From contig JBAXAM010000003.1 in the NCBI GenBank assembly GCA_037142515.1, positions 9,484 through 73,483 on the forward strand: a DNA stretch of 64,000 nt. Reading direction: 5' to 3'. The notes below the pieces were generated by a model. The model was given only the letters and a program-made list of their open reading frames with translations. It searched no databases and was not told the DNA's origin. Each line of letters opens with the position of its first letter. The stretch's first letter is position 1. The stretch is from a bacterium. GTDB taxonomy: Bacteria > Pseudomonadota > Gammaproteobacteria > UBA9339. A program made the position numbers and the translations under genes. Of the stretch, positions 212-55,316 are shown in pieces.

Positions 212-856
212 ATGTTCGAATTACGCACCTTGACCTTTATAGATAATTTGCAACCCCAGCTTGCTCATTTTATTCCAGAAGAGCATATGGTTTATGCTCC
301 TTCTGAAAATGATGCAATGCTAATTATAGAAATAGCCCCAGCGATGGAAATTCATTCGATGGTTGATTTAGCGTTAAAGAGAACTAAAGTGCAGCTCGGT
401 GCGTTAATAACAGAAAGATATTTTGGTCAGTTATTTATACAACATTCTGATCAGGGTGAAGTAATCGAAGCTGGGCGAGAAATTTTGCGTATCACCGGCC
501 TTGATGAAAAGAATCGCGCCAAAATTGAAGTTCTTACCAACAAAATTATTCGTAGCGTTGAGCCAGATCACGCAAAATATTTCAATATCGATGCAGTGAA
601 CAATAAAGTAATACCAGGCGAATCAGTTTTGCTTATAGAGACAACTCCAGCAGCATATTCTGCTATTGCTTGTAATGAAGCATTGAAGGCCGCAAATGTA
701 AAGCTAATAACAATCAGGCCGTTTGGAGCTACAAGTAGATTAGTTATGAGCGGGCCAGAATCAGAAATTGATTCAGCAGCTGAAGCAGCTATCAAGATAA
801 TCGATAAGCTTAATGAGATGCGAGCAAATAAAACCCATAAACAATTAGGCGTATAG
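212..856 (+). CDS. tandem BMC-domain protein (bacterial microcompartment shell, BMC-T-like)
   Basis: This 214-aa ORF has two internal copies of the BMC pattern. Residues ~35-95 read MLIIEIAPAMEIHSMVDLALKRTKVQLGALI...GEVIEAG. Residues ~137-200 read SVLLIETTPAAYSAIACNEALKAANVKLITIRPFGATSRLVMSGPESEIDSAAEAA. Compare PduA [52 protein letters not shown]. Confidence 0.7.
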   Translation: MFELRTLTFIDNLQPQLAHFIPEEHMVYAPSENDAMLIIEIAPAMEIHSMVDLALKRTKVQLGALITERYFGQLFIQHSDQGEVIEAGREILRITGLDEKNRAKIEVLTNKIIRSVEPDHAKYFNIDAVNNKVIPGESVLLIETTPAAYSAIACNEALKAANVKLITIRPFGATSRLVMSGPESEIDSAAEAAIKIIDKLNEMRANKTHKQLGV

Positions 857-16736: not shown

Positions 16737-18827
16737 ATGTCACGTACACATCCATTAAAATATTATAGAAACATTGGTATTGCGGCGCACATTGATGCGG
16801 GCAAGACTACGACTACCGAAAGAGTGTTGTTTTATACTGGTGTTTCGCACAAGATGGGTGAAGTGCATGAAGGTACTGCTGTCATGGATTGGATGGAGCA
16901 AGAGCGTGAACGCGGTATTACGATCACTGCTGCAGCGACCACGTGTCGCTGGAGTGGAATGAATAAACAGTATCAAGAACATCGCATTAATATTATTGAT
17001 ACACCTGGACATGTTGATTTTACTATTGAGGTTGAGCGCTCGCTTCGTGTGCTTGATGGTGCGGTGGTTGTATTTTGTGCTGTTGGTGGTGTTGAGCCGC
17101 AGTCGGAAACTGTATGGCGTCAAGCTAATAAGTATAAGGTTCCGCGAATTTGTTTTGTCAATAAAATGGATCGTGCTGGAGCTGATTTTTTCCGCGTCGC
17201 AAAACAAATTGTTGACCGTTTAGGTGCTAATGCGGCTGTTATGCAGGTGCCAATTGGAAAAGAAGAAAATTTTAAAGGCGTAATAGATTTGGTTGGTATG
17301 CGCGCTATTTTTTGGAGTGAAGAAGATAAAGGGATGACTTATAAAGAAGAGAATATTCCGGAAGATTTGCAGTCTATTTGCGATGAGTTGCATGAAAAGT
17401 TGATTGAGCAAGCAGCAGAAGCTGATGAAGAATTAATGCATAAATATTTAGAAGGTCACAAGTTGACAGTAGAAGAGATTAGAGCGGGCATCAGAAAACG
17501 CACGATTGCCAATGAAATTGCTCCAGTATTTTGTGGGTCAGCCTTTAAGAACAAGGGCGTTCAGGCGGTATTAGACGGTGTTATTGATTATTTGCCTGCG
17601 CCAAATGAGATTGCGGCAATCAATGGTATACTTGAAAATGGTACCGAAGCGATTCGCAAAGCTTCTGATGAGGAGCCTTTTGCTGCACTGGCTTTCAAAA
17701 TTGCTACTGATCCGTTTGTGGGCGCTTTGACATTTTTTAGAGTTTATTCCGGTGTTTTGCGTTCAGGGGATGGGGTTTATAACCCAGTAAAGTGTAAAAA
17801 AGAACGAATTGGTCGTATTGTACAATTACATGCGGATACGCGCTTAGAGATTAAGGAAGTTTATGCTGGTGATATCGCCGCCGCTGTCGGTTTAAAAAAT
17901 GTTACTACTGGTGATACGCTTTGTGATGAAGATAATATTATTACGCTAGAACGCATGGAGTTTCCTGAGCCTGTTATCTCAGTTGCTGTTGAGCCAAAAA
18001 CTAAGGCTGATCAGGAAAAAATGGGAATTGCGCTAAATAAGTTAGCACAAGAAGATCCATCTTTTCGTGTTCACACAGATGAAGAGTCAGGTCAGACAAT
18101 TATTGAAGGGATGGGTGAGTTACATTTAGAAATTATTGTTGACCGTATGAAGCGTGAGTTTAGTGTTGATGCTAATGTTGGTAAGCCACAAGTTGCTTAT
18201 CGTGAAACTATACGTAAACTTGTTGAGCAAGAAGGTAAATACATTAAACAATCAGGTGGTCGTGGTCAGTATGGACATGTTTGGATCAAAATTGAGCCGT
18301 TGGCACGTGGTGCAGGGTATGAATATGTTAATGATATTGTAGGCGGCGTGATTCCGAGAGAATATATACCAGCAGTCGATAAGGGTATTAAGGGGCAAAT
18401 GGAAAATGGTGTTATAGCTGGCTATCCTGTGGTTGATGTTCGGGTTACTTTATTTGATGGTTCTTATCACGATGTTGACTCGAGCGAAATGGCGTTTAAA
18501 ATAGCCGGTTCAATGGCTTTCAGAGAGGGTGCTCTTAAAGCGGATCCTGTGCTTTTAGAGCCTATAATGAGTGTTGAAGTAGTGACGCCTGAAGAATATA
18601 TGGGCGATGTGGTTGGTGACTTGAGTCGTCGTCGCGGTGTTATTCAAGCGATGGATGCAGGTCCATCTGGAAAAATTATTAAAGCTGAGGTTCCTCTCGG
18701 CGAGATGTTTGGTTACGCTACTGATGTGCGTTCAATGAGTCAAGGGCGAGCGACATATACAATGGAATTTGCTAAGTATAATGAGGCTCCTTCTAGTATA
18801 ACCGAGTCGGTAGTAAAGAAAAAATAA
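16737..18827 (+). CDS. fusA: elongation factor G
   Basis: 696 aa with [34 protein letters not shown] and NKMDR. Confidence 0.98.
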
Positions 18828-18842
18828 GTATTTTTAAAAACC

Positions 18843-20057
18843 TATAAAAATAGGAGTACAAACAATGGCAGAAAAAGAAAAATTTGATCGAACCAAGCCG
18901 CATATAAATATCGGTACTATAGGGCATGTAGATCATGGTAAAACAACGCTAACAGCAGCGATGACGATGGTACTGGCTGCAAAATTTGGTGGTGAAGTAA
19001 AGAAATTCGACGAAATTGACAATGCCCCAGAAGAAAAAGAAAGAGGCATAACAATAGCAACTTCGCATGTTGAATATCAAACAGCGAAATTCCATGTTGC
19101 TCACGTAGATTGCCCAGGACATGCTGATTATGTAAAAAACATGATTACTGGAGCAGCACAGATGGATGGAGCTGTTTTGGTTGTAAGTGCAGCTGATGGT
19201 CCAATGCCACAAACCAGAGAGCACATTCTTTTGGCCAGACAGGTTGGAGTGCCAAAAATTATTGTATATTTAAATAAAGCTGATATGGTGGACGATCCTG
19301 AGTTATTGCAGCTGGTTGAGATGGAGATTAGAGATTTATTGAATAAATATGAATTTCCAGGAGATATAACGCCGATTGTTGTTGGTTCTGCCTTAAAAGC
19401 GCTTGAAGGAGATAAAAGCGAATTGGGAGAGCCATCGATATTGAAATTGGCTCAAACGATAGATGAGTATTTTGTAATACCAGAGCGTCCAAAAAACAAA
19501 CCGTTTTTGATGCCAATAGAAGATGTATTTTCTATATCAGGAAGAGGCACGGTAGTAACTGGAAGAATTGAAAGAGGTATAGTTAAGTCTGGAGAAGAAG
19601 TAGAGATAGTTGGGATTCGTCCTACACAAAAGACTATATGTACCGGTGTTGAGATGTTTAGAAAGATTTTGGACCAAGGAGAAGCTGGAGATAATGTTGG
19701 AGTGTTATTGCGTGGCACTAAGAAAGAAGATGTCGAAAGAGGTCAGGTATTAGCGCATCCAGGAACGATAACTCCACATACTAAGTTTGAAGCTGAAGTA
19801 TATGTACTTTCGAAAGAAGAAGGTGGAAGACACACAGCGTTTTTCAAAGGATATCGTCCACAGTTTTATTTTAGAACTACTGACGTAACTGGAGCAGTGG
19901 AATTACCATCTGGTGTTGAGATGGTGATGCCCGGAGATAATATTAAGATAGTAGTAGCCTTAATAGTACCGGTTGCTATGGAAGACGGGGTAAGATTTGC
20001 AATAAGAGAGGGCGGCCGAACAGTTGGCGCTGGGGTTGTAACTAAGATTATTGAATA
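18843..20057 (+). repeat. tuf repeat copy 2 (identical to 2751..3965)
   Basis: See copy 1. The offset between the copies is 16092 nt. Confidence 0.9.
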
Positions 20058-20058
20058 G
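18865..20058 (+). CDS. tufA: elongation factor Tu (str-operon copy)
   Basis: The 397-aa product is identical to that of the 2773-3966 copy. It occupies the canonical fusA-tufA position. Confidence 0.98.
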
Positions 20059-20066
20059 GTTTAAAC

Positions 20067-20393
20067 ATGTCGGCTGTTATAAAAAAGAGTCAAAGAATTC
20101 GTATTCGCTTAAAGGCATTTGATCATCGTTTGATCGATCAGGCGACACATGAAATTGTTGAAACTGCAAAGCGTACTGGCGCACAGATTCGTGGGCCGAT
20201 TCCGTTGCCGAATCGTATAGAGCGTTTTACTGTTTGTACTTCGCCAAATGCAGATAAAGATGCACGGGATCAGTATGAGATTCGTACTCATAAACGTTTG
20301 CTCGACATAGTGTTTCCAACTGATAAAACAGTTGATGCGTTGATGAAGTTAGATTTAGCTGCTGGAGTTGAGGTTCAGATCAGTGTTGATTAA
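20067..20393 (+). CDS. rpsJ: 30S ribosomal protein S10
   Basis: [40 protein letters not shown]. It starts only 8 nt after the tufA stop codon. Confidence 0.97.
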
Positions 20394-20408
20394 TTAAGGT
20401 TTAAGAAA

Positions 20409-21074
20409 ATGACTATTGGTTTAATAGGAAAAAAATGTGGCATGACTCGAATATTTTCTCTCGAGGGTAAGTCAATCCCGGTGACGGTTATTGAGGTTTT
20501 GCCTAATCGTATTGTACAAGTTAAAACTAAAGAGAATGATTTGTATAATGCTATTCAAGTTACTACTGGCACTAAAAAACCCCTTAAGGTTAATAAGGCT
20601 ATAGCTGGTCATTTTAGCAAAGCTAATGTTGCCACTGGAGATGGGTTATGGGAGTTTCGTTTAGCTGAGAATGAAGACAAGGATTTAGTGGTGGGTAGTG
20701 AGTTTACGGTTGATTTATTTAAAGTTGGGCAGATAGTTGATGTTAATGGTGTAACGAAAGGAAAAGGGTTTGCAGGTGTAATTAAACGCCATCATTTTTC
20801 TGGCGGTCCTGCTAGCCATGGAAATTCTTTGTCGCACCGCGCTCCGGGATCTATTGGTCAGCGCCAAACTCCTGGCCGTGTATTTAAAGGCAAAAAAATG
20901 GCTGGTCATTTAGGTAGTGTTAACAGAAGTATTCAGAGTCAAAAAGTTGTTAAAATTGATAATGAGCGCAATTTAATTATGATTAAAGGTGGTATCCCCG
21001 GTGCTCCAGGTGGATACGTTGTAATAACCCCTGCGGCTAAAGTAAAAACAAGAGGAGATGGGGATGGAGCTTAA
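20409..21074 (+). CDS. rplC: 50S ribosomal protein L3
   Basis: [14 protein letters not shown]...[32 protein letters not shown]. Confidence 0.97.
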
Positions 21075-35699: not shown

Positions 35700-35799
35700 G
35701 GTAATGCCGCTCCGCTATTTTTGTTATATGATTCGACCCATATGATATGCCAACTATGGTTTTTTGTAAATTCAGTTATAATTTGGTACAATTTGCTAT

Positions 35800-36354
35800 A
35801 TGGTAGAGGAAACCTCAGCTTTTAATATTTGGAGTGAGCGCGATCTTGGTGTTGATACGACCACGGACCAAGATTTTGACACGGTATCAGAAGCTGATGT
35901 TAAGTATTGCTGTAACTCCTTTTATCCCTTTATACAGCTTGTTAATGCGGATGCAGTATTTGGTGAAGAACAGCCGCTAACTTTTGTTAAAGCGTCAACC
36001 GGTTGGATGCTTCACGATTACGGTGAGGCTATTAGTGCTTCCTCTCCTTATTCAGCAGAACAACAAAAAACCGCAAATAGCGTTCTTGACCAAGCAAAAA
36101 CCGTTGAAGAAATCGGAAAGCTCATTGCTGCAAAAAACTGGGTTTCAGTTGAGGTAATTGCGGGTTCGCCAATGATGAAGCGCTTTGTTTGGATAGAGGC
36201 AAAAAGATCCAAATTTGATTTGATTGGATATGAGCCAAATGCCAGCGATGAAAAATGCTACGATCGTTTAGCCAAGCGTGCTAAGGATATGGGGCTAGTT
36301 TGGGAGCATCCTATAAAAGTCCAGCCACAATCTAGTATAACCACAGCGACATAA
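35800..36354 (+). CDS. hypothetical protein (184 aa, acidic N-terminus; no family recognised)
   Basis: An open frame with the right codon periodicity, 41 nt upstream of the giant ORF on the same strand. TATAAT (35777-35782) and TACAAT (35787-35792) lie just upstream. There is no clear SD, so the start is uncertain and the mRNA may be near-leaderless. Confidence 0.55.
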   Translation: MVEETSAFNIWSERDLGVDTTTDQDFDTVSEADVKYCCNSFYPFIQLVNADAVFGEEQPLTFVKASTGWMLHDYGEAISASSPYSAEQQKTANSVLDQAKTVEEIGKLIAAKNWVSVEVIAGSPMMKRFVWIEAKRSKFDLIGYEPNASDEKCYDRLAKRAKDMGLVWEHPIKVQPQSSITTAT

Positions 36355-36395
36355 AAGACATGTTTTTTTGTGAAATTTGAGGGATAGGAAACTTT

Positions 36396-39300
36396 ATGGA
36401 ACAAGATACGGCAAAAAAAGCAGATGAGCAAATAACGCCGATACAAGTCGGTATGTCGCCGCCCGAGTCTAAAAAAGGTCAAAAACCACCATCTATACTT
36501 ACCATTGACAAGGCTTATAATATATTGCTGAGTTCCAGATATCCAGTTAGTGACAATAGTGCAATTGATGAGAATGATGTTGATGAGAAGCGTGTCTCGA
36601 CAGGGAAAATTAATTGCATGATGGAAACGTTGCGGTGTAAGCCTTATCCTAATTGTGAAGCAGTTAAAAAGTGTCCTCTTGATAAATTAGAAAAGGATAA
36701 AGAACGCCTTTTGAGGGAAAGGCTTGATTACGTAGTAAATATGAGTAGCGGTATGTTGTTTCAGGCTATTCCTGAAATAGATTATGGGAAGTCGGATGAC
36801 GCAAGTAAAAAGATTAAAGAGAGTATTGAAAAAGGCATACCAACTTTCGAGATTTTTTTAAAAGAAGCAGGAATAGATATTAACGAAGATGGTAAATATG
36901 CAAATGCTAAAAAACAGCTTGAAGAATTCCATAAAAAATATGATGAAATGCGTGAAAATCTAATCGAACGGAATGTTAAGTTGTACCTTAATGGTGCAAC
37001 TAGAGGAGCCGTGATAGAAGAAGAGGAGGTTTTAGCGGAGAAAATTGCCGTTGAAGGGGAAAGAAAATATAGAGAAAGATTCGAGGCAATGGGAGACGAA
37101 AAAGATTTAAGAGAGTTACAAAATATGCATAAAGGCATGGATGATGCCACTTTTATGGGTCAATTGGCTAAGTTTAATCCGAAGACATCGTCATACAGAA
37201 CTATTGATGACCTGTTAGAGGGCGAAACACAAAAAGTCCCTAATTCTAATGGATTGTATGTTAGGTGTGGCAGTGATGGTGAAAAAATTTTTATCCTTAA
37301 AGAGCCTAATAGGGAAAATACCCTGAAGGTTATTGAAGCAAAAAAAAATAAAGAACAAATTAATTGGACTGGTGTTTCTGAAACTGACTATGCTAGACAA
37401 AGTGAAATACTGACGCTGTGCTTAGCAGCGGGGAAAAAATGTACTATTAATGGAAAAAAACTTCCATTATCAGAAACAATGCCATCAGGAGAGCCAGAAA
37501 ACTATACTCAGTGGGTTAAAAATATTATTGAGTTATATGGGTCGGATGAGAAAAAGCGTGCTGAGCTTTTGAAACAGTTGGGTCGTGTTCTCGACGAGAA
37601 AGGACCTGATGAAAAAGAAAAATTTTTGTTTCATCTGAGCGAGAACGGTTCAGTGGAAGAGCGCAAGGTGGCTGAGGAAGCTATGAGAGGAACTGGGGTT
37701 ATAGTTCGAAATAGAATTGTTGATGAAAGTCATTGGTATGATAATACTGCTCCGGGAAAGGAAAAGAAAACGAGAACGTATAGATACGACGAAGAAACGC
37801 CGTGTTTAAAAGATGTTGTTGTTAAAAAATTAGAAGCGGCTGAAAAAAAATTACTTGAAGCAATGGGAACAGAACCAAGAGATGAACCGTATATAGCTCA
37901 ATGTAAGGCCGAAGTTGATAATCGTAGTAAAGCTCTTATGAAGCTCATTGAAAGCAATACGGAAGAAGAGAACGTTAAAGCGAGATCAATACTGGGGTTT
38001 AACGAGAGGTATATTGATCGGTTAGACGATATTGCAAAAAAAATAGCAAAAGCAGAAGAGCGGCAAGGCACGATGGTGAAAAAAGCGGAAGAGGAGAAGG
38101 CCGGTGCATTAGAAAAAGTAAGAAGATTGTCGTTGCCAGAAGAAAAAAGAAATCTAATTGAGTATATTGAAAAGCTAGAAAAATTAGAAGAGCTAGAAAA
38201 ACTAGAAAACCCGGACAAAGCAGATGAAATTAAAAAGTTGAAAGAGGAGATGGCTAAGTTAGAAAATGTTGTAGTGGAAGGAAAAAATACTGTGAATGGT
38301 TTGAAAGTATTAAATGAAGAAATTTATAAGTGCGCAGACGATTTGAAAGGCTTAGAAAAGGATAATAAGGAGTTATCAAAAAAACTAGAAGCACCCGACA
38401 AAGCAGATAAAGAAAAGGTAAATAATTTTTTAGAAAAGCTAAAAGAACGAGACAAGGCGAGAAAAAGCGACGAACCTGATGAAGAAAAAATAAAGGAACT
38501 GAAAGGGGCGCTTGGCGTCTTACAAGAGAGTTTAGGAAAAGATGTGGATTCTTTACTAGAGGTAGATTCGGAAATTGCGACGAAGCGTAAAGATTTGAAA
38601 AGAAGTAAAAAATATAAAAGCGAGTTGTTGGTAACTGCAAAAAAAATGCTTGAGAAAAAAGTAGATGTAGATGATGCTCCGGTGCTGTCGTTAAAAGAAT
38701 ATCTTAAAAAACGAAAAGAAGCGGCAGATGCTACTGATATTTTAGAAAAAACGAGATTGGAAAATGAGCTGAAAGTAGCGAAAGACAAAGTTGTTGATGG
38801 TGAAAAAAAAGATGTAAATGATTTAGTAGAAAAAGATGAGGCCGTTGAAAAAGCAGTTAAGGATGTGGCAGAAAAGAAAAAAGCTCAAGATGGAGCATTA
38901 AAAGAAGTAAAAACGCTTAGTAATACAGTCTCAGTAAATGAAAAACCATTGTTAGATAGTTATATTAAAAGCCACGAAGAATTGGAAAAAGAAAATAAAA
39001 AAGGTGATAAGTGCGATAAGGCTGTAGTAAAAAAACTGGAAGAAAATCTGGCGTTAGCGGAAACAGGACTTCAAAGCAAGGAGTCTCAGCTAGCTTTAAC
39101 AAATTTAAAAAAACACGATCAAGAACTTAAGACGGCAAATGATAGCAAGAAAGAAGCAGAAGCGGAGCGCGATGAGTCCCTAAAAAAAGTAACAGAGCCG
39201 GTAATACAGATGCAGTTAAGGGGGTATCTTAAAAAACGAAAAGAGCTAGAAGGTGAAAATAAAAAAGGCGGTAAGCGTGATAACAAGAAAGTTGAAGAAC

Positions 39301-41558
39301 TAAAAAATGAGATGGCTGCTTTAGTGGGGGAAATAAAGTCACTAGGGGATAATAATGCAGTCAAAGCTATAGAAGCTTTAGAAAAATCAGAAGAAGGTAA
39401 TCCGGAAGAAGAAAAAGTAAAAAATTCGATAATAGAATCGAGAAATGAGTTTGATGCTGCGGAGGTAGGTCTTTTATGGTCCATTGAGAACAATCCAGAG
39501 CAATTAAAAGAGCTTGTGAGTAAATTGAGCAAGCATCCAAAGGGGTTCAAAGATATTGTCAAGAATGTTAAAAATGATCAAAGACAAGCTTTTCAAACAG
39601 CTTGTGTTAACGCATTAGACGAGCTTGTTGATGAAGAAGAACAGCGCATACAAGCTGGTGCCATAGCAGAAACGCTAGCAAGTTTTCCTGTTGATCCTGC
39701 GAACCCAGAGCGATCGAGCCCAGAGCAATTAAAGGAGCTCTGGGCTAATATTAAAAAAGCTAAAAATGAAAAAGTTGTTGATCTATGTGCCTCTTGTTTG
39801 AAGCCAGAGCAAAAAGCTATTTTATTAGCAGATAAAGCTGAGTTATTACTTAGGGTTTCTCCAGAAAAGATAGGAGAAGTAAGAAGTGAGGTTGAAGTAA
39901 ATAAAAAATCTTGTGAAGCAGTTAAGCAGCCGCGTTCTGATAAGTTTGAAGCATATTTAAATAAACGAAAGGAGTTATTGCAAAAAGGTTACTTTGCGGA
40001 AGAAGATGTAACGCTCCTTAATGGTTTAGCGGTAGATATTAAAAAATCGGCAGAATTAAAAGTTGCAAAAGGCATGCAGATGGCAGATGAAAAATTGCAG
40101 AAAATAGAAGGCGATTTAAATGATGCTAAGAAGGATATTGGTTTGATTATTGGAGCAACTAAAAAACCAGAAGAATTACGCGAACTTTGGGTTAGGCTTA
40201 GTAGTAATAATACACTAGAAGAAAAGCTCAGTGTATATAGAAAACATTTTAGTGAAGAGCAAAAAAATGGTTTGCAAAAGCACTATACTGATGTGTTAAA
40301 AGAGACTAATGAGAAATTAGGAAAAGCGACAACTAATGTTGAAAAAGATAGTCTAAATAAAGAACTTGTTAAAATACGAAAGGAACAATTGAGTTTTATT
40401 GGAACAGATCCAAGACGATTATTAGATACAAGTAAGGTGCAAGAAGCTACAGATGCAGCAGCAAGAGGGACTAAGGCAATAAGTGACTGGGCAGGGCGAG
40501 GAAATAAATTACCAGGGGAAGGCACATTGCTTTTTATTTATCTTGATAATCGAAAGAAACTAAATGACAAAATAAAGGAACTACGAAAGGCAGGTACGAG
40601 CATTGCTAATAACGAGGAAGTTAATAAATTGAGACAAAACGTCGCCGACGCAGTGAAAAATATAGAGGTAGAAGTAGAGAAAAAAGAAAACAAGAAGGAA
40701 AATATAAAAGAAGAAGCAGGTCTGGTAGCGTTGTTAGAAGCCGAAGATAAAAAGATAATGGAAGTAGAGCAGGAGGAAATCGATGGACTCGCTAAAGATT
40801 TATCTGAAGAGCAAGAAGGCGCTTTATTAAAATACTGTGGGGATACGATAAGCGACAAATGCGTTCCGCAATTTGAAAAAGGAGTTAAGGAGGCTGAAGC
40901 TGCTTTAGCTGAAAAGTTAAAGGTAGTAGAGGGAATTAAGGGTGTTAGGTCTGTTGTGGAATATGGGGGCGAGCGAAAGAAGTTGGTGGAAAAACGAAAG
41001 GAACTAGAGGGATTTAAAAGGGCTTTAAAAACATTGGATGAAGTGTTAAAAAAGAACCCAAACGATGCTGGTCTTGCTGAAGAGAAAAAAGATATAGAAG
41101 AGAAGATAAAAAAAGCCACTAAAGAAATTGAAGGCTTACAAGTAAAGGTCACCGATGCGACGAAAAAAGTGCCTGACAAAGAAGGAAGAAGGGCTGTAGA
41201 TGGCGTAGAAGAAGCGGATAAGGAGTTGCAAAAACAACGAGAAGGTTTAGAAAAAGCTAGAAATGACAGAGATGCGGGATTGCTTGCAGCTATAGAGAAA
41301 ATATATGGATTTCTTGTTGCTAATGGAGCTAAAAGACCAGGGATTACAATTACAAATCTGACAAAAGAAATGCAAAACCCTCAAACTCGATTAGAAGTAT
41401 TAAATGGACTACCAGAACCTTATGGGACGGCGGTAAAAAAAGAAAAAGCTTATATTGATTTAGTAAAAGAAGTTGAAAAACTAAAGCAACCTCAAAAAGA
41501 ACAAGAGCCCGGAAAACAAAATATCAATAGATCTGTGATGAGGTCCAACAACAGCTGA
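36396..41558 (+). CDS. giant Lys/Glu-rich repetitive coiled-coil protein (1720 aa), candidate secreted effector
   Basis: An uninterrupted 5.2-kb ORF with GGATAGGAAAC upstream of the ATG. The protein is dominated by K/E/L heptad-like stretches (for example EKLEKLEELEKLENPDKADEIKKLKEEMAKLE). I recognised no enzymatic motif. Confidence 0.85.
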   Translation: MEQDTAKKADEQITPIQVGMSPPESKKGQKPPSILTIDKAYNILLSSRYPVSDNSAIDENDVDEKRVSTGKINCMMETLRCKPYPNCEAVKKCPLDKLEKDKERLLRERLDYVVNMSSGMLFQAIPEIDYGKSDDASKKIKESIEKGIPTFEIFLKEAGIDINEDGKYANAKKQLEEFHKKYDEMRENLIERNVKLYLNGATRGAVIEEEEVLAEKIAVEGERKYRERFEAMGDEKDLRELQNMHKGMDDATFMGQLAKFNPKTSSYRTIDDLLEGETQKVPNSNGLYVRCGSDGEKIFILKEPNRENTLKVIEAKKNKEQINWTGVSETDYARQSEILTLCLAAGKKCTINGKKLPLSETMPSGEPENYTQWVKNIIELYGSDEKKRAELLKQLGRVLDEKGPDEKEKFLFHLSENGSVEERKVAEEAMRGTGVIVRNRIVDESHWYDNTAPGKEKKTRTYRYDEETPCLKDVVVKKLEAAEKKLLEAMGTEPRDEPYIAQCKAEVDNRSKALMKLIESNTEEENVKARSILGFNERYIDRLDDIAKKIAKAEERQGTMVKKAEEEKAGALEKVRRLSLPEEKRNLIEYIEKLEKLEELEKLENPDKADEIKKLKEEMAKLENVVVEGKNTVNGLKVLNEEIYKCADDLKGLEKDNKELSKKLEAPDKADKEKVNNFLEKLKERDKARKSDEPDEEKIKELKGALGVLQESLGKDVDSLLEVDSEIATKRKDLKRSKKYKSELLVTAKKMLEKKVDVDDAPVLSLKEYLKKRKEAADATDILEKTRLENELKVAKDKVVDGEKKDVNDLVEKDEAVEKAVKDVAEKKKAQDGALKEVKTLSNTVSVNEKPLLDSYIKSHEELEKENKKGDKCDKAVVKKLEENLALAETGLQSKESQLALTNLKKHDQELKTANDSKKEAEAERDESLKKVTEPVIQMQLRGYLKKRKELEGENKKGGKRDNKKVEELKNEMAALVGEIKSLGDNNAVKAIEALEKSEEGNPEEEKVKNSIIESRNEFDAAEVGLLWSIENNPEQLKELVSKLSKHPKGFKDIVKNVKNDQRQAFQTACVNALDELVDEEEQRIQAGAIAETLASFPVDPANPERSSPEQLKELWANIKKAKNEKVVDLCASCLKPEQKAILLADKAELLLRVSPEKIGEVRSEVEVNKKSCEAVKQPRSDKFEAYLNKRKELLQKGYFAEEDVTLLNGLAVDIKKSAELKVAKGMQMADEKLQKIEGDLNDAKKDIGLIIGATKKPEELRELWVRLSSNNTLEEKLSVYRKHFSEEQKNGLQKHYTDVLKETNEKLGKATTNVEKDSLNKELVKIRKEQLSFIGTDPRRLLDTSKVQEATDAAARGTKAISDWAGRGNKLPGEGTLLFIYLDNRKKLNDKIKELRKAGTSIANNEEVNKLRQNVADAVKNIEVEVEKKENKKENIKEEAGLVALLEAEDKKIMEVEQEEIDGLAKDLSEEQEGALLKYCGDTISDKCVPQFEKGVKEAEAALAEKLKVVEGIKGVRSVVEYGGERKKLVEKRKELEGFKRALKTLDEVLKKNPNDAGLAEEKKDIEEKIKKATKEIEGLQVKVTDATKKVPDKEGRRAVDGVEEADKELQKQREGLEKARNDRDAGLLAAIEKIYGFLVANGAKRPGITITNLTKEMQNPQTRLEVLNGLPEPYGTAVKKEKAYIDLVKEVEKLKQPQKEQEPGKQNINRSVMRSNNS

Positions 41559-41563
41559 GCGTT

Positions 41564-42034
41564 TTATATAATCTCTCTCCGAGCTTTGAAGAAGTCTGAC
41601 AAGATTTTGCTGCATTCAATAGCGAGAATATAGCCTTGGTATTCGATTTTGTGATTTGAATTTTTTTCATCTAATAATTTAAAAACACTTACAACCGCTC
41701 CGGTTTTTGGATCTAATGCTCCAAAAACCAAGCGTTTAATGCGTGAGTGCAACATGGCGCCAACACACATTGCGCATGGTTCTAGAGTCACATATAAAGT
41801 CACGTCAGGTAAGCGATAATTATTTAATTTTTGTGCGGCCTGTCTTAAAGCTATAATTTCTGCGTGTGCTGTTGGATCGCAAGTACTGATAGGGCAGTTA
41901 AATCCTTCGCCAATTATTTCATTATTTACTACGGAAATAGCACCAACTGGCACTTCATTGGCGCTCTTGGCTTTTTCTGCCATCCTAAGCGCGTGCTGCA
42001 TAAAAAAAATATCTTGTGATCTTGAATTAGGCAT
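41564..42034 (-). CDS. tadA: tRNA adenosine(34) deaminase
   Basis: MQHALRMAEKAKSANEVPVGAI..., HAEIIALR and LYVTLEPCAMCVGAM (the CDA zinc motifs H-A-E / PCxxC). Confidence 0.93.
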   Translation of the reverse strand: MPNSRSQDIFFMQHALRMAEKAKSANEVPVGAISVVNNEIIGEGFNCPISTCDPTAHAEIIALRQAAQKLNNYRLPDVTLYVTLEPCAMCVGAMLHSRIKRLVFGALDPKTGAVVSVFKLLDEKNSNHKIEYQGYILAIECSKILSDFFKARREII

Positions 42035-42038
42035 TAAG

Positions 42039-42320
42039 TTATTTTTTTAAGTTGCGATAAAAGTTTTCATGTGTCCCAACATCTAGCAAGATAATTTCTT
42101 TTTTTGATTCGTAATACTTATATGCAATCAAAGTAAGCTGGCCTATCATATGAAATTTATAGACTTTCACACCTAAGCAATCTCCTTTTTTATTTTCTCC
42201 AATGTTGGGATTGACACGTATTTTTTCGATACTTTTTTCTAATGAGATTGCTTGATTGTTGTGTAGCCTTTTTGCCGAACGCTTGAAAGCGTTAGTTTTG
42301 TTTATTTGCACTAAACTCAC
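42039..42320 (-). CDS. type II toxin, RelE/ParE superfamily
   Basis: A 93-aa ORF reading ...FKRSAKRL..NQAISLEKSIEKIRVNPNIGENKKGDCLGVKVYKF.MIGQLTLIAYKY...KEIILLDVGTHENFYRNLK. This is the typical RelE/ParE fold pattern, and the ORF overlaps the upstream antitoxin gene by 29 nt. Confidence 0.75.
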   Translation of the reverse strand: MSLVQINKTNAFKRSAKRLHNNQAISLEKSIEKIRVNPNIGENKKGDCLGVKVYKFHMIGQLTLIAYKYYESKKEIILLDVGTHENFYRNLKK

Positions 42321-42534
42321 CCTTTGTATATGGTTCTACTCTTCCAGCGTCGACATCTGCCAACCCCTCAAAAATTTTTATAATAAATTCAACTGGCAAA
42401 TCTGGATTGTCTATGGCGGCGCGTCCAATTTTTGCCCAATAAGCTATTTGATTAGGAACAGAGCGATATTGCGCTTGCGCTATTGGCTTTGCTGCGTTAT
42501 AAAGCTCTTCGTTAATTTTTATTGCAATGCTCAT
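42292..42534 (-). CDS. ParD-like type II antitoxin
   Basis: An 80-aa ORF reading MSIAIKINEELYNAAKPIAQAQYRSVPNQIAYWAKIGRAAIDNPDLPVEFI. This resembles the ParD_like antitoxin family as I remember it, and it sits immediately 5' of the toxin. Confidence 0.7.
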   Translation of the reverse strand: MSIAIKINEELYNAAKPIAQAQYRSVPNQIAYWAKIGRAAIDNPDLPVEFIIKIFEGLADVDAGRVEPYTKGEFSANKQN

Positions 42535-53050: not shown

Positions 53051-53116
53051 AATGTTAAGTGAAACTCGAATTATAATTCGTAAAATAGGCATCTTATTAA
53101 TTTATAAGAAAAAATC

Positions 53117-53504
53117 ATGGAAAAAAATTTTAAATATTCAAAACCCTCATTGGGCAAATGTATCGTATAAGCAAATCTCTGACCGATCTGTGCTTGATCG
53201 GCTAATAAAAAAACTGTCGCTTAAAGAGATACAAGTGCTCTTGGGTGTAAGACGATCAGGAAAATCCACCCTATTTAAACTTTTGATCAATCATATTCTA
53301 AAGCAGGTAGATGGGAAAGAAATTTTTTATATTAATTTGGATGATCCGTTTTTTTCCGAAGTTTGGGATGATGCGAAAAAATTATATTCCGTAGTAGAAA
53401 CAGCTGAGAAAATAACCGGAACTAATAACCAAGAAGAAAAAATTAGCGAAAAAATAGCAGTTATCCCTTTTTGGAAGTGGTGGTTTTTAATTGACACCAT
53501 GTAG
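53117..53504 (+). pseudogene. remnant of an AAA_14/DUF4143-type ATPase gene
   Basis: The reading frame gives ..ILNIQNPHWANV...VLLGVRRSGKSTLFKLL...IFYINLDDP (N-terminal P-loop part). It then jumps directly to a family-typical C-terminal ...KIAVIPFWKWWFL, so roughly 270 aa of a ~400-aa protein are missing. The only nearby ATG (53117, in atggaaaaaaatttt) is out of frame across an A-run. Confidence 0.6.
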
Positions 53505-54281
53505 AAAATGAAACGCTCCATAACCTACTACTTGGTCTTTTGATCCAGCAGTGTCACCAGAATTGCGCAGATCAACTTGTGTTGCGCGCATCTTTTTCTT
53601 GGCAGCAACAGTCAGCAAGCCCTTTATAGCTGTTGCACCGCAGGCCTGTTCTGATGAAAAACCCTCTGGATACAGTGCAATAATAGCACCCGCTGTTTTT
53701 TTGTCTAAAGATTGTGCTAGGTCGTAAGGGTAGTAATGGCTCAAATCGGAACTAATGATAATTATAGTTTCTGGACCACCCCATAATTTCTCTAAAATAT
53801 TTGCTACTTGTGCAACTGTAGCTAAGCCAACCAATAATGGTACTAAAGAAAAATTTTCTAGTGTTAACTGTAAGAATGGTAGGTGTACTTCGATGGCATG
53901 TTCTGAAACAAAGGCTTCTTCGATTGCTTGTACATAAGGTAAATTTATTTTAGCTATGCTTTTTTGATCGATGGTAATTTGACCCAGTGGAGTAATATAA
54001 AATTCAGCGTTGGTTGTAGCAATGCCATCTACAGGATATTGATGTGATGGTGCAAGCAATACTACTTGATGAATTTGCTTTTTGGCCTTTGCGAGGCTTG
54101 CATAAGCGGATGCAGCAATTGGTCCTGAGTAAATGTAACCAGCATGTGGAGCAATAATTGCTTTTGGGATTGGTAACGCGGCTTTATCGGATGCGTCTAC
54201 AAGCATTTTTAAAATGTTCTGGCATAGCACATCAGGATTTGTTGGATAGAACTTGCCTGCGACGTTTGGATAAATTACCAT
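53487..54281 (-). CDS. amrB: MEMO1-family protein (AmmeMemoRadiSam system protein B)
   Basis: MVIYPNVAGKFYPTNPDVL...AIIAPHAGYIYSGPIAASAY...VVLLAPSH...IIISSDLSHY are MEMO-family motifs. Confidence 0.88.
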   Translation of the reverse strand: MVIYPNVAGKFYPTNPDVLCQNILKMLVDASDKAALPIPKAIIAPHAGYIYSGPIAASAYASLAKAKKQIHQVVLLAPSHQYPVDGIATTNAEFYITPLGQITIDQKSIAKINLPYVQAIEEAFVSEHAIEVHLPFLQLTLENFSLVPLLVGLATVAQVANILEKLWGGPETIIIISSDLSHYYPYDLAQSLDKKTAGAIIALYPEGFSSEQACGATAIKGLLTVAAKKKMRATQVDLRNSGDTAGSKDQVVGYGAFHFLHGVN

Positions 54282-54284
54282 AAT

Positions 54285-55316
54285 ATGGTTATGTTATCAC
54301 AAAGTTATCCAACAAAATATTGGCACAAATTAGAAAATGATAGAGTCCAGTGTGACCTTTGTCCCCAATTTTGTAAATTAAACGAAGGACAGCGTGGTAT
54401 TTGCTATGTAAGAGTGCGGCAAAACGACCAAATTGTGCTTACTGCTTATGGGAGATCGAGTGGTTTTTGTGTTGATCCAATTGAAAAAAAACCGCTAAAC
54501 CATTTTTTGTCCGGTTCAGCTGTTTATTCCTTTGGTACCGTTGGTTGTAATTTATTATGTAAGTTTTGTCAAAATTGGGATATAAGTAAAGTGCGTGAAG
54601 ATGATGGTTTGGCGGCCATAGCTACGCCACAAAATATTGCCAAGATTGCTAAGAAGCAGCAATGCCAAAGCGTTGCTTTTACTTATAATGAGCCAATTAT
54701 TTTTATGGAGTATGCCATCGATGTTGCCAAAGAATGTCACAAGCTTGGCATTAAGACCGTGGCGGTGACCAATGGTTATATTTGCGATGAGCCGCGCAAA
54801 GAATTTTTTTCTCACATGGATGCTGTTCGTGTTGATCTTAAGAGCTTTACCGATAAATTTTATAAGAATATAACTAGTTCACGTTTGCAGCCAGTGCTGG
54901 ATACTCTTGTTTACTTAAAAAAGCATACAAATATTTGGTTTGAAGTTATTTGTCTTTTAATTTCTGGTGAGAATGATTCTGTCGCTGAAATTGAAGAATT
55001 AACTAAGTGGCTCGTAGAAAACTTGGGGGTAGATGTTCCTGTGCATTTCACCGCTTTTTACCCAGCATGGAAGATGCTTGATAAACCAGTAACGCCACTT
55101 GAGATTTTAATTCGCGCACGTGATATCGCTATGAAAAATGGAATGCGATATGCTTATACAGGCAATGTCTATCATCCCGAGGGCAGTAAAACTTTTTGCC
55201 ATAACTGTAAAAAATGCGTAATTGTCCGGGCTAGTTATACTATTGAGGAATATCACCTGAATGATACAGGGAATTGCAAGTTTTGTGGAGCTGAATGTGC
55301 CGGGGTCTTTATTTGA
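54285..55316 (+). CDS. amrS: AmmeMemoRadiSam system radical SAM enzyme
   Basis: The N-terminal Cys cluster reads VQCDLCPQFCKLNEGQRGICYVR, the radical-SAM motif reads GCNLLCKFCQNW, and the C-terminal cluster reads CHNCKKC...GNCKFCG. The gene is divergent from amrB. Confidence 0.88.
   Translation: MVMLSQSYPTKYWHKLENDRVQCDLCPQFCKLNEGQRGICYVRVRQNDQIVLTAYGRSSGFCVDPIEKKPLNHFLSGSAVYSFGTVGCNLLCKFCQNWDISKVREDDGLAAIATPQNIAKIAKKQQCQSVAFTYNEPIIFMEYAIDVAKECHKLGIKTVAVTNGYICDEPRKEFFSHMDAVRVDLKSFTDKFYKNITSSRLQPVLDTLVYLKKHTNIWFEVICLLISGENDSVAEIEELTKWLVENLGVDVPVHFTAFYPAWKMLDKPVTPLEILIRARDIAMKNGMRYAYTGNVYHPEGSKTFCHNCKKCVIVRASYTIEEYHLNDTGNCKFCGAECAGVFI

Follow-up and report, generated by a model that had tools for sequence, protein, structure and literature searches.

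A giant helical protein with a variable number of modules and its conserved partner gene: a candidate diversifying type IVB secretion substrate of UBA9339 endosymbionts

The window analysed here (64,000 nucleotides of contig JBAXAM010000003.1, assembly GCA_037142515.1) carries at 36396..41558, on the forward strand, a single open reading frame (ORF) for a giant protein of 1720 amino acids (195 kDa, pI 5.85), directly preceded on the same strand by a gene for a 184-residue protein, here called the partner (35800..36354, gap of 41 nt). With a probability of about 0.45, the giant protein is a candidate substrate of a type IVB (Dot/Icm) secretion system (T4BSS), diversifying and acting on the host, produced from a two-gene operon of protist endosymbionts of the GTDB order UBA9339. 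This reading is the most economical one, because the ORF is preserved, its body is diversifying, the obligately intracellular lineage possesses Dot/Icm, no Sec signal is seen and no relatives occur elsewhere. A candidate translocated effector had already been proposed in the original prediction; this idea is retained, resting on the Dot/Icm genes of the relative GD-1, on the lack of Sec signals and transmembrane segments and on hypervariability, while the arguments drawn from the tail, from mimicry of eukaryotic rods and from an insertion of the gene fall away, as can be seen below.

The family of the giant protein is undescribed, having no match in Pfam, NCBIfam, the PDB or the literature. 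Residues 1-560 were used as the query of an exhaustive HMMER search against 1.84 billion cluster representatives, which returned 14 clusters at E<=1e-3, with lengths of 167-1646 aa; the sole region common to all of them corresponds to residues ~118-427. The whole protein gave no match in Pfam, NCBIfam or PDB sequences, and Pfam was also empty for eight relatives. In word-index searches with the whole protein and with residues 1031-1720, K/E-rich words swamped the results, and the search with residues 1031-1720 missed even the protein's own entry; the negative results of both were discarded for this reason.

Related genomes were anchored via the adjacent SmpB, yielding 80 SmpB-anchored loci; L and P numbers designate related loci and family members below where a distinction is needed. 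The closest SmpB is that of Gammaproteobacteria bacterium strain GD-1 (91% identity), followed by those of Coxiellaceae metagenome-assembled genomes (MAGs) at 71-80%, and the window organism is best placed, from such comparisons, as a Coxiellaceae-like bacterium with GD-1 as its closest relative. In at least eight related genomes, the partner of ~185 aa and the large protein (533-1720 aa) stand in this order between bamE and tadA. Within the longer order MlaA-smpB-bamE, partner, giant gene, tadA-xseA-nrdG(-nrdD), the giant orthologue has 1537 aa in GD-1, 1371 aa in L085/P0003, 1383 aa in L091, 816 aa in L087/P0006, 808 aa in L083 and 533 aa in L004, and L002 contains two paralogues in tandem (1183 and 1014 aa) as well as a fragment of 406 aa; tadA is equally placed in L083, L085, L087, L091 and GD-1. 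A profile search of all ORFs in the 80 anchored loci found partner and giant gene only in the four closest, and neither of them lies beside smpB/bamE in Legionella and other Coxiellaceae. The pair is therefore a resident, vertically inherited two-gene module of a narrow clade.

The giant gene had been described as inserted between bamE and tadA, and it had been treated alone, leaving the conserved, co-located partner unconnected to it. Both points have to be revised, as the pair holds this site in every related genome examined. A recent horizontal insertion was rejected, the synteny being conserved and the GC content only mildly lower, as the Lys/Glu codon content of the gene would lead one to expect.

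Some of the related loci present particular arrangements. In the Coxiellaceae MAG L002 (377..8432, reverse strand), the tandem paralogues are 65% identical over 580 aa and the 406-aa fragment is related to their C-terminal parts, a local expansion of the family. In L081 (10559..14047), the partner is separated from a family member of 731 aa by a gene for a 226-aa protein whose N-terminus resembles a signal peptide, and the family member stops abruptly inside the head domain; a fragment of an ISL3 transposase is near and the tadA context is lost, and L081 may thus have a disrupted module. The five independent metagenome contigs L088, L089, L090, L094 and L096 end shortly past the partner or inside the giant gene, as would fit assemblies broken by repeats or by heterogeneity among strains.

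Besides its fixed position, the giant gene is set apart by its rate of change. Compared with GD-1, the identities are 92% for RpoA, 91% for both SSB and SmpB, 89% for BamE, 88% for MlaA, 87% for XseA, 86% for TadA, 84% for NrdG and 82% for the partner, and 34% for the giant protein; its rate of diversification is about 10 times that of its neighbours, with the reading frame kept. The same is seen at a finer scale between the near-identical strains L085 and L091. Their flanking proteins are 97-100% identical (99-100% except for BamE, 97.0%), and of ~2100 flanking codons 9 differ nonsynonymously and 10 synonymously. In this one strain pair the giant gene accumulates 95 nonsynonymous and 28 synonymous codon differences, corresponding to nonsynonymous (dN) and synonymous (dS) rates of 0.036 and 0.033 and a dN/dS of 1.10, together with nine indels, all of them in-frame. 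Fisher's test of the giant gene against the flanks gives p=0.011, or 1.2e-5 when the partner is pooled with the flanks. Regarding the regions of the protein, dN/dS is 0.65 in the head domain and 1.59 in the module body, and it is lowest, over few sites, in the C-terminal module (0.31).

Purifying selection on the partner, in contrast to the giant gene, is strong, with a dN/dS of 0.026 (10 synonymous and 1 nonsynonymous differences between L085 7398..7952 and L091 10001..10555); its dS of 0.088 compares with roughly 0.01 in the flanks (about 0-0.03 for the flanking genes). The raised synonymous divergence at the locus hints at old, long-maintained or recombining alleles. Moreover, when the window species is compared with a second strain (L094, L096), 2555 nt contain 18 mismatches, 16 of which are concentrated in the initial 959 nt of the giant gene, as 10 nonsynonymous and 5 synonymous codons; a single mismatch, synonymous, is found in the partner and another one in 1000 nt of smpB/bamE.

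A dN/dS near 1 could also be read as the absence of selection, the giant gene being dispensable and drifting neutrally to loss. The whole-gene value of 1.10, the large length differences among genomes and the L081 copy, truncated within the head domain with an insertion sequence (IS) element near it, are in line with drift. It is nevertheless very improbable, as genomes with SmpB identities from 72 to 91% have all retained intact ORFs (533-1720 aa), all nine inter-strain indels are in-frame, the head keeps invariant residues, the head and the C-terminal module stay below 1, and promoter and partner are conserved. The in-frame indels, the intact copies throughout the clade, the invariant head residues and the conservation of C-terminal module, promoter and partner are the grounds on which the giant ORF is considered preserved.

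The giant protein is organized in a conserved head, a long helical body and a conserved C-terminal end. The first 117 residues (36396..36746, forward strand, as for all segments of the protein) are variable, K/P-rich and probably disordered, and lie outside the stretch conserved in the HMMER search; at residues 35-43 they contain the motif L-T-x-[DE]-[KR]-A-Y-x-I, present in 8 of 12 family members and preceded by Pro/Lys-rich sequence. The head domain follows at residues ~118-427 (36747..37676), with helices and a compact alpha/beta core at residues ~255-425. An alignment of 13 sequences shows no variation at C342, L343, K347, L358 and S359 and hardly any at W324, M362 and P363. The AlphaFold2 model built from this alignment has a mean predicted local distance difference test (pLDDT) of 76, reaching 85-95 at residues ~255-425, and displays a core of beta-hairpin/alpha/beta/alpha/beta with helices around it. 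Foldseek found no match to this fold in the PDB (best E 0.22, TM<0.2) and none in BFVD, and profile searches of the head against PDB sequences, Pfam and NCBIfam were empty as well; as modelled, it would be a domain without a recognisable fold relative.

The body contains five tandem helical modules of ~88 aa (38133..39473), at residues 580-670, 667-752, 759-843, 848-935 and 934-1026, each starting with a P..L..Y-L-K-K-R-K-E-L motif. The motif occurs at residues 590, 678, 769, 856 and 944, then again at 1187 and 1382. A self-comparison by BLASTP shows no repeats and a two-unit profile gives weak matches in register; the repeats become clear once the profile is seeded with orthologues and controlled by leave-out and shuffling. 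The self-similarity at an offset of 88 scores 74 against a maximum of 60 for locally shuffled sequences. With a leave-out profile, built from the modules of other organisms only, the five tandem modules score 6.2, 5.6, -0.5, 1.9 and 16.1 bits in order, the maximum of 100 local shuffles being 3.7 bits. This profile finds window copies at residues 580, 667, 934, 1177, 1371 and 1554 (5.6-37.3 bits), whereas those at 759 and 848 keep the register with weak scores. An iterated profile, seeded with modules of GD-1 and of the window, recovers seven copies in the window, five in GD-1 and one or two in the shorter relatives, with shuffles at 9.7 bits or less. In addition, remnants of repeats at the DNA level (families D1 and D4) are present in the tandem-module region.

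After the tandem modules, a less charged helical island at residues ~1040-1176 (39513..39923) bears 'NPEQLKELV/W' motifs, is alignable to GD-1 and P0003 and has a K+E share of 24%, compared to 36% in the tandem modules. Three further modules are then found: copy 6 at residues 1177-1261 (39924..40178; leave-out score of 8.3 bits, reached by 0/100 shuffles), copy 7 at 1371-1477 (40506..40826; 23.6 bits) and copy 8 at 1554-1636 (41055..41303; 37.3 bits), the last one aligning across seven proteins. Copy 8 is followed by a conserved C-terminal module at residues ~1637-1690 (41304..41465), with the pattern L-A-A-x-E-[KR]-x-x-G ... N-P ... L-P-E-P, whose L/A/G/P columns are invariant in seven family members; both are conserved in all full-length members. 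By these profiles, the giant protein of the window carries at least eight ~88-aa modules, five of them in tandem, and the length differences among orthologues, GD-1 included, largely correspond to module gain and loss.

The protein is K/E/L/A-rich, as originally described, with measured shares of 15.0% K, 14.0% E, 10.1% L and 7.5% A, and from this composition the protein had been regarded as heptad-like almost throughout and as resembling myosin tails, SMC proteins or lamins. A significant 3.5-residue periodicity is confined to patches at residues ~477-730, 785-840 and ~1010. However, the alpha/beta domain at residues ~118-427 interrupts such a picture, and the longest stretch free of Pro and Gly in the 1720 residues measures 47 aa. 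The AlphaFold2 model of residues 560-1720 is all-alpha, with about 40 separate helices of 10-62 aa, mostly 15-35 and a few of 50-62, linked by short loops. Its mean pLDDT of 67 and predicted TM score (pTM) of 0.31 make the helix boundaries credible but not the packing. Against the PDB and BFVD, Foldseek returned no match to the helical body at E<1e-3, listing non-significant, generic helical structures such as plectin spectrin repeats, axonemal proteins and alpha-pore-forming toxins.

That the protein mimics the long coiled-coil rods of eukaryotes, or is homologous to them, is barely credible in view of these data. Composition and patchy amphipathic periodicity are what the protein shares with myosin tail, SMC or lamin proteins; Pfam and the PDB show no match, the Foldseek hits are non-significant, a Walker A motif is absent and the helical chain is divided into ~88-aa modules that this family alone possesses. 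Long coiled-coil rods have hundreds of residues of unbroken heptads, unlike the 47-aa maximum seen here, and the globular parts of SMC, myosin and lamin proteins (Walker heads, hinge, motor and Ig-fold) have no counterpart by sequence or Foldseek in the giant protein. The likeness is compositional, neither structural nor evolutionary. A better picture of the body, as far as the model goes, would be one of short antiparallel helical bundles, spectrin-like in spirit. Similar to spectrin repeats (~106 aa), the ~88-aa modules are arranged in tandem, are predicted to have a few helices with short loops and vary in copy number among orthologues; they differ from them in having no Pfam spectrin match, in the non-significant Foldseek value for plectin (E 0.43, TM about 0.13, with the packing of the model at low confidence) and in the signature P..L..YL.KR..L, which is unique to the giant-protein family.

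The partner has 12 homologous clusters at 55-84% identity, with 38 invariant columns, and is present at every locus bearing the giant gene. Due to the 41-nt gap without a terminator, co-transcription of the two genes is likely. Comparing the partner with known domains, a sub-threshold match to LPD7 (PF18821) was noted in 5 of 13 members (best E 9.6e-4; 16.9 bits against a cutoff of 27), relating partner residues ~97-149 to LPD7 positions 35-83. LPD7 is a domain of the 'polyvalent proteins' of phages and conjugative elements, whereas the partner stands alone, encoded on the chromosome outside any polyvalent protein or mobile element, and the LPD7 literature yielded nothing useful for it; the PDB and NCBIfam gave no match. 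PADLOC and PHROGs have no match for the partner or the giant protein and gene order on the chromosome is stable throughout the clade, so that an anti-phage defence or a phage or mobile-element module was rejected.

Upstream of the partner, a consensus scan and an intergenic alignment of 10 loci point to a divergent promoter block at 35742..35792, active on both strands by prediction. The forward strand carries TTGTAA-N17-TG.TA(C/T)AAT (35764-35792; TACAAT in the window), an extended -10 sigma-70 promoter before the partner, and overlapping it on the reverse strand is TTTACA-N17-TAT(C/T)AT (35770->35742; TATCAT in the window), which faces bamE. All 10 orthologous loci retain this block, in contrast to the remaining intergenic region, which diverges. 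In the window, the -10 element ends 7 nt before the partner ATG (35787..35802) and no Shine-Dalgarno sequence is present, which suggests a leaderless partner mRNA in this organism; the leaders of the relatives measure 25-65 nt. A PmrA-type tandem box upstream of the operon was also considered and rejected, as no convincing box is seen and two overlapping divergent sigma-70 promoters fit better.

Turning to the secretion-system setting, GD-1 is an endosymbiont of a magnetotactic freshwater ciliate and belongs to the GTDB order UBA9339, beside Coxiellales (PMC13103400). Its genome of 2.0 Mb encodes 21 Dot/Icm genes, ankyrin and leucine-rich repeat (LRR) proteins, as well as a type V secretion system (T5SS) and further secretion systems (PMC13103400). 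UBA9339 is among the GTDB orders composing the NCBI Legionellales, in which the Dot/Icm-type pT4SSi is considered ancestral (PMC9418006).

The giant protein itself shows neither a signal peptide nor a transmembrane-grade segment nor a Walker A motif, in agreement with the earlier observation that no signal peptide, transmembrane segment or catalytic motif could be recognised; a Sec signal peptide or transmembrane-grade segment is lacking in every member of the family (19-residue Kyte-Doolittle mean <=1.5). Its last 30 residues, KEVEKLKQPQKEQEPGKQNINRSVMRSNNS (41466..41555), form a disordered polar tail with a pLDDT below 50. The C-terminal sequence is as it was first quoted; the Glu-rich block attributed to it, which had been likened to Dot/Icm C-terminal translocation signals, does not stand, as the tail is net basic. 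As described by Meir et al. (PMC5802825), DotM binds Glu-rich tails only if they are net acidic, and Lem8, whose Lys-neutralised tail is unbound by DotM, is yet a bona fide substrate. The tail of the window protein is Lem8-style at best and no acidic E-block of the DotM type; the tails of most orthologues, net positive too, contain 1-5 Glu at positions -8 to -25. Many Dot/Icm substrates use IcmSW or internal signals, and a basic tail is for this reason compatible with translocation.

Several points nevertheless weigh against a host-acting T4BSS substrate. The last 30 residues hold 7 K/R against 4 D/E (pI 9.8), and the tails of the relatives are polar, disordered and mostly net positive, with no conservation of sequence. 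Neither homology to curated effector families of Legionella and Coxiella (NCBIfam, including the T4SS effector equivalogs, and Pfam) nor, by Pfam, a eukaryote-like domain was detected in the giant protein, the latter being also missing from its relatives. Within the 64-kb window there are no dot/icm or other secretion-system genes. The core-genome neighbourhood and the housekeeping-type sigma-70 promoter, back-to-back with that of bamE, suit a role in the cell biology of the bacterium equally well. Moreover, the dN/dS near 1 derives from one strain pair and from metagenome consensus sequences and is not a formal test of positive selection, and in helical proteins of low complexity, structure by itself is reason enough for fast evolution.

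These same features give rise to the main rival, in which the giant protein would be a bacterial cytoplasmic scaffold or cytoskeleton-like protein, engaged in shape, division, the nucleoid or developmental forms, with the partner as its assembly factor and the fast evolution reflecting weak sequence constraint on helical filler. The strictly conserved core-genome position, the conserved sigma-70 promoter region common with bamE, the presence of the giant gene in every clade member sampled, the absence of a recognisable secretion signal or E-block and a body predicted as all-helical with patchy amphipathic periodicity are all in accordance with a scaffold. It is considered unlikely, as a dN/dS of ~1.1 overall and 1.6 in the module body is well over the usual purifying selection on structural proteins, and the synonymous divergence is raised too, suggesting old or recombining alleles. 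In addition, family members carry anything from a single module to at least 8, with tandem paralogues in one genome, the globular head is likewise far more diverged than the neighbours, and no long unbroken heptad stretch is available for building filaments.

The variability could also belong to a protein exposed on the surface or released by a route other than the T4BSS, such as a type I secretion system (T1SS) or vesicles, varying to evade recognition by host or phage. Hypervariability, changes in repeat number, in-frame indels and the T5SS and other secretion systems of GD-1 are compatible with it. This route is improbable in the light of the protein itself, which has no signal peptide, no beta-barrel or autotransporter domain, no RTX or Ig-like repeats and no transmembrane anchor, and whose highly charged, all-alpha composition is atypical of Gram-negative surface proteins.

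Considering the giant protein as a host-acting T4BSS substrate, the following mode of action can be proposed. The protein would be exported without Sec, most plausibly through the Dot/Icm type IVB system of the lineage, and would then act on a host component. The conserved head may be the functional or binding unit, and the helical modules may serve as an extended, adjustable spacer or stalk, or as a multivalent scaffold, under diversifying selection. The C-terminal module and the tail would be recognised by the secretion machinery, whereas the partner could be a dedicated adaptor, chaperone or regulator. A bolder version, which is speculative and on balance doubtful, takes the pair as an ancestral host-interaction determinant of UBA9339, with a new-fold head on a stalk of variable module number, kept at one site under diversifying or balancing selection; it would be a candidate host-range factor and a new effector architecture.

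Regarding the gene model, the ORF at 36396-41558 and its length of 1720 aa were reproduced as first reported, and an identical 1720-aa product is encoded by two independent assemblies of the same organism, which speaks against an assembly artefact. A Shine-Dalgarno sequence, AGGA, is located at 36386-36389, 6 nt before the ATG. In the NCBI MAG record WCH10_01465 ('bacterium') the gene begins later, at Met75 (36618), giving 1646 aa. The upstream ATG (36396, 1720 aa) is supported by the Shine-Dalgarno sequence and by two other gene calls. The purine skew of the gene and its Ser/Phe-rich antisense shadow ORFs, both pointed out at the outset, were also recovered: purines make up 65.7% of the coding strand, compared to 53-55% in other genes of the window, and this bias accounts for the Ser/Phe-rich antisense ORFs of 106-213 aa. 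At the 3' end, the TGA (41556-41558) is 5 nt from the stop codon (41564-41566) of the convergent tadA, and a scan of this gap detected no terminator-like hairpin, so both the spacing and the lack of a terminator agree with the initial description. The tadA gene, for tRNA adenosine deaminase (41564..42034, reverse strand; Pfam MafB19-deam and dCMP_cyt_deam_1), marks the downstream boundary of the module.

Other genes of the window also deserve mention. Directly after tadA, a pair of ParE-like toxin and ParD-like antitoxin is encoded at 42039..42534 on the reverse strand, and L085 and L091 have another toxin-antitoxin (TA) pair (RelB/YafQ) slightly further on, after xseA; the region downstream of tadA appears to collect TA modules. 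A SET-domain protein of 429 aa (49894..51183, forward strand) is eukaryote-like (PF00856, E 3e-8) and weakly matches the Dot/Icm effector AnkI/LegAS4 of NCBIfam (E 4e-5, far under the cutoff), being a possible second effector-like candidate in the window. Two adjacent paralogous ORFs on the forward strand, 59761..61092 and 61241..62668, match the LbtU-family siderophore porins (NCBIfam E 1e-43 and 3e-75; no Pfam match), an iron-uptake family of Legionella type. At 212..856, on the forward strand, a bacterial microcompartment shell (BMC) domain protein lies beside a class II aldolase and a triosephosphate isomerase, and the related L081 genome (1.8 Mb) has a BMC/EutN/aldehyde-dehydrogenase cluster (16928..20558) near the same region; microcompartment genes are unexpected for a reduced endosymbiont genome. 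The AMMECR1 - Memo - radical-SAM trio at 52490..55316 forms a conserved cluster whose function is largely unknown.

Protists widely harbour uncultured, Legionellales-like endosymbionts, and their repertoire for host manipulation is essentially unknown beyond counts of ankyrin and LRR proteins. The locus described here unites three traits, namely a fixed site throughout the clade, the absence of relatives elsewhere (1.8 billion clusters) and a local hot spot of amino-acid and repeat-number change, and such a signature usually marks the interface of a host-symbiont arms race. If translocated, the giant protein would provide a workable marker of host specificity and for the typing of strains, along with a new domain and a new module to characterise; if it is a bacterial scaffold, it is an unusually fast-evolving one. 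In either case, two misreadings are corrected, those of a 'generic coiled coil' and of an 'orphan insertion'.

Among known systems, the closest comparison is offered by the large helical Dot/Icm effectors of Legionella and Coxiella, such as SidH, with its metaeffector LubX, and LidA, LepB and SdhA. Similar to them, the giant protein comes from Legionellales sensu lato that are intracellular in protists, with Dot/Icm in a sister genome, and it is very large, mostly helical and lineage-restricted, without a Sec signal and with a polar, disordered C-terminus. As in effector-regulator pairs of the SidH/LubX type, a small gene adjoins the giant one. It differs from these effectors in lacking any effector-family similarity, in a tail that is basic instead of acidic and Glu-rich, and in its translocation, which is putative; furthermore, most effector repertoires turn over, whereas the giant gene stays at one place in the core genome throughout the clade. 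The chlamydial protein Tarp is an example of a repeat-variable, fast-evolving, secreted host-interface protein of obligate intracellular bacteria. Proteins of this type resemble the giant protein in the variation of repeat number, the in-frame indels and the high nonsynonymous rate on a near-clonal background, but they share no homology with it and use another secretion system, and the giant gene has a conserved partner and a non-repeat head. Fast-evolving, repeat-variable and putatively secreted giant proteins of intracellular bacteria are thus a familiar kind, to which the present family is a new addition.

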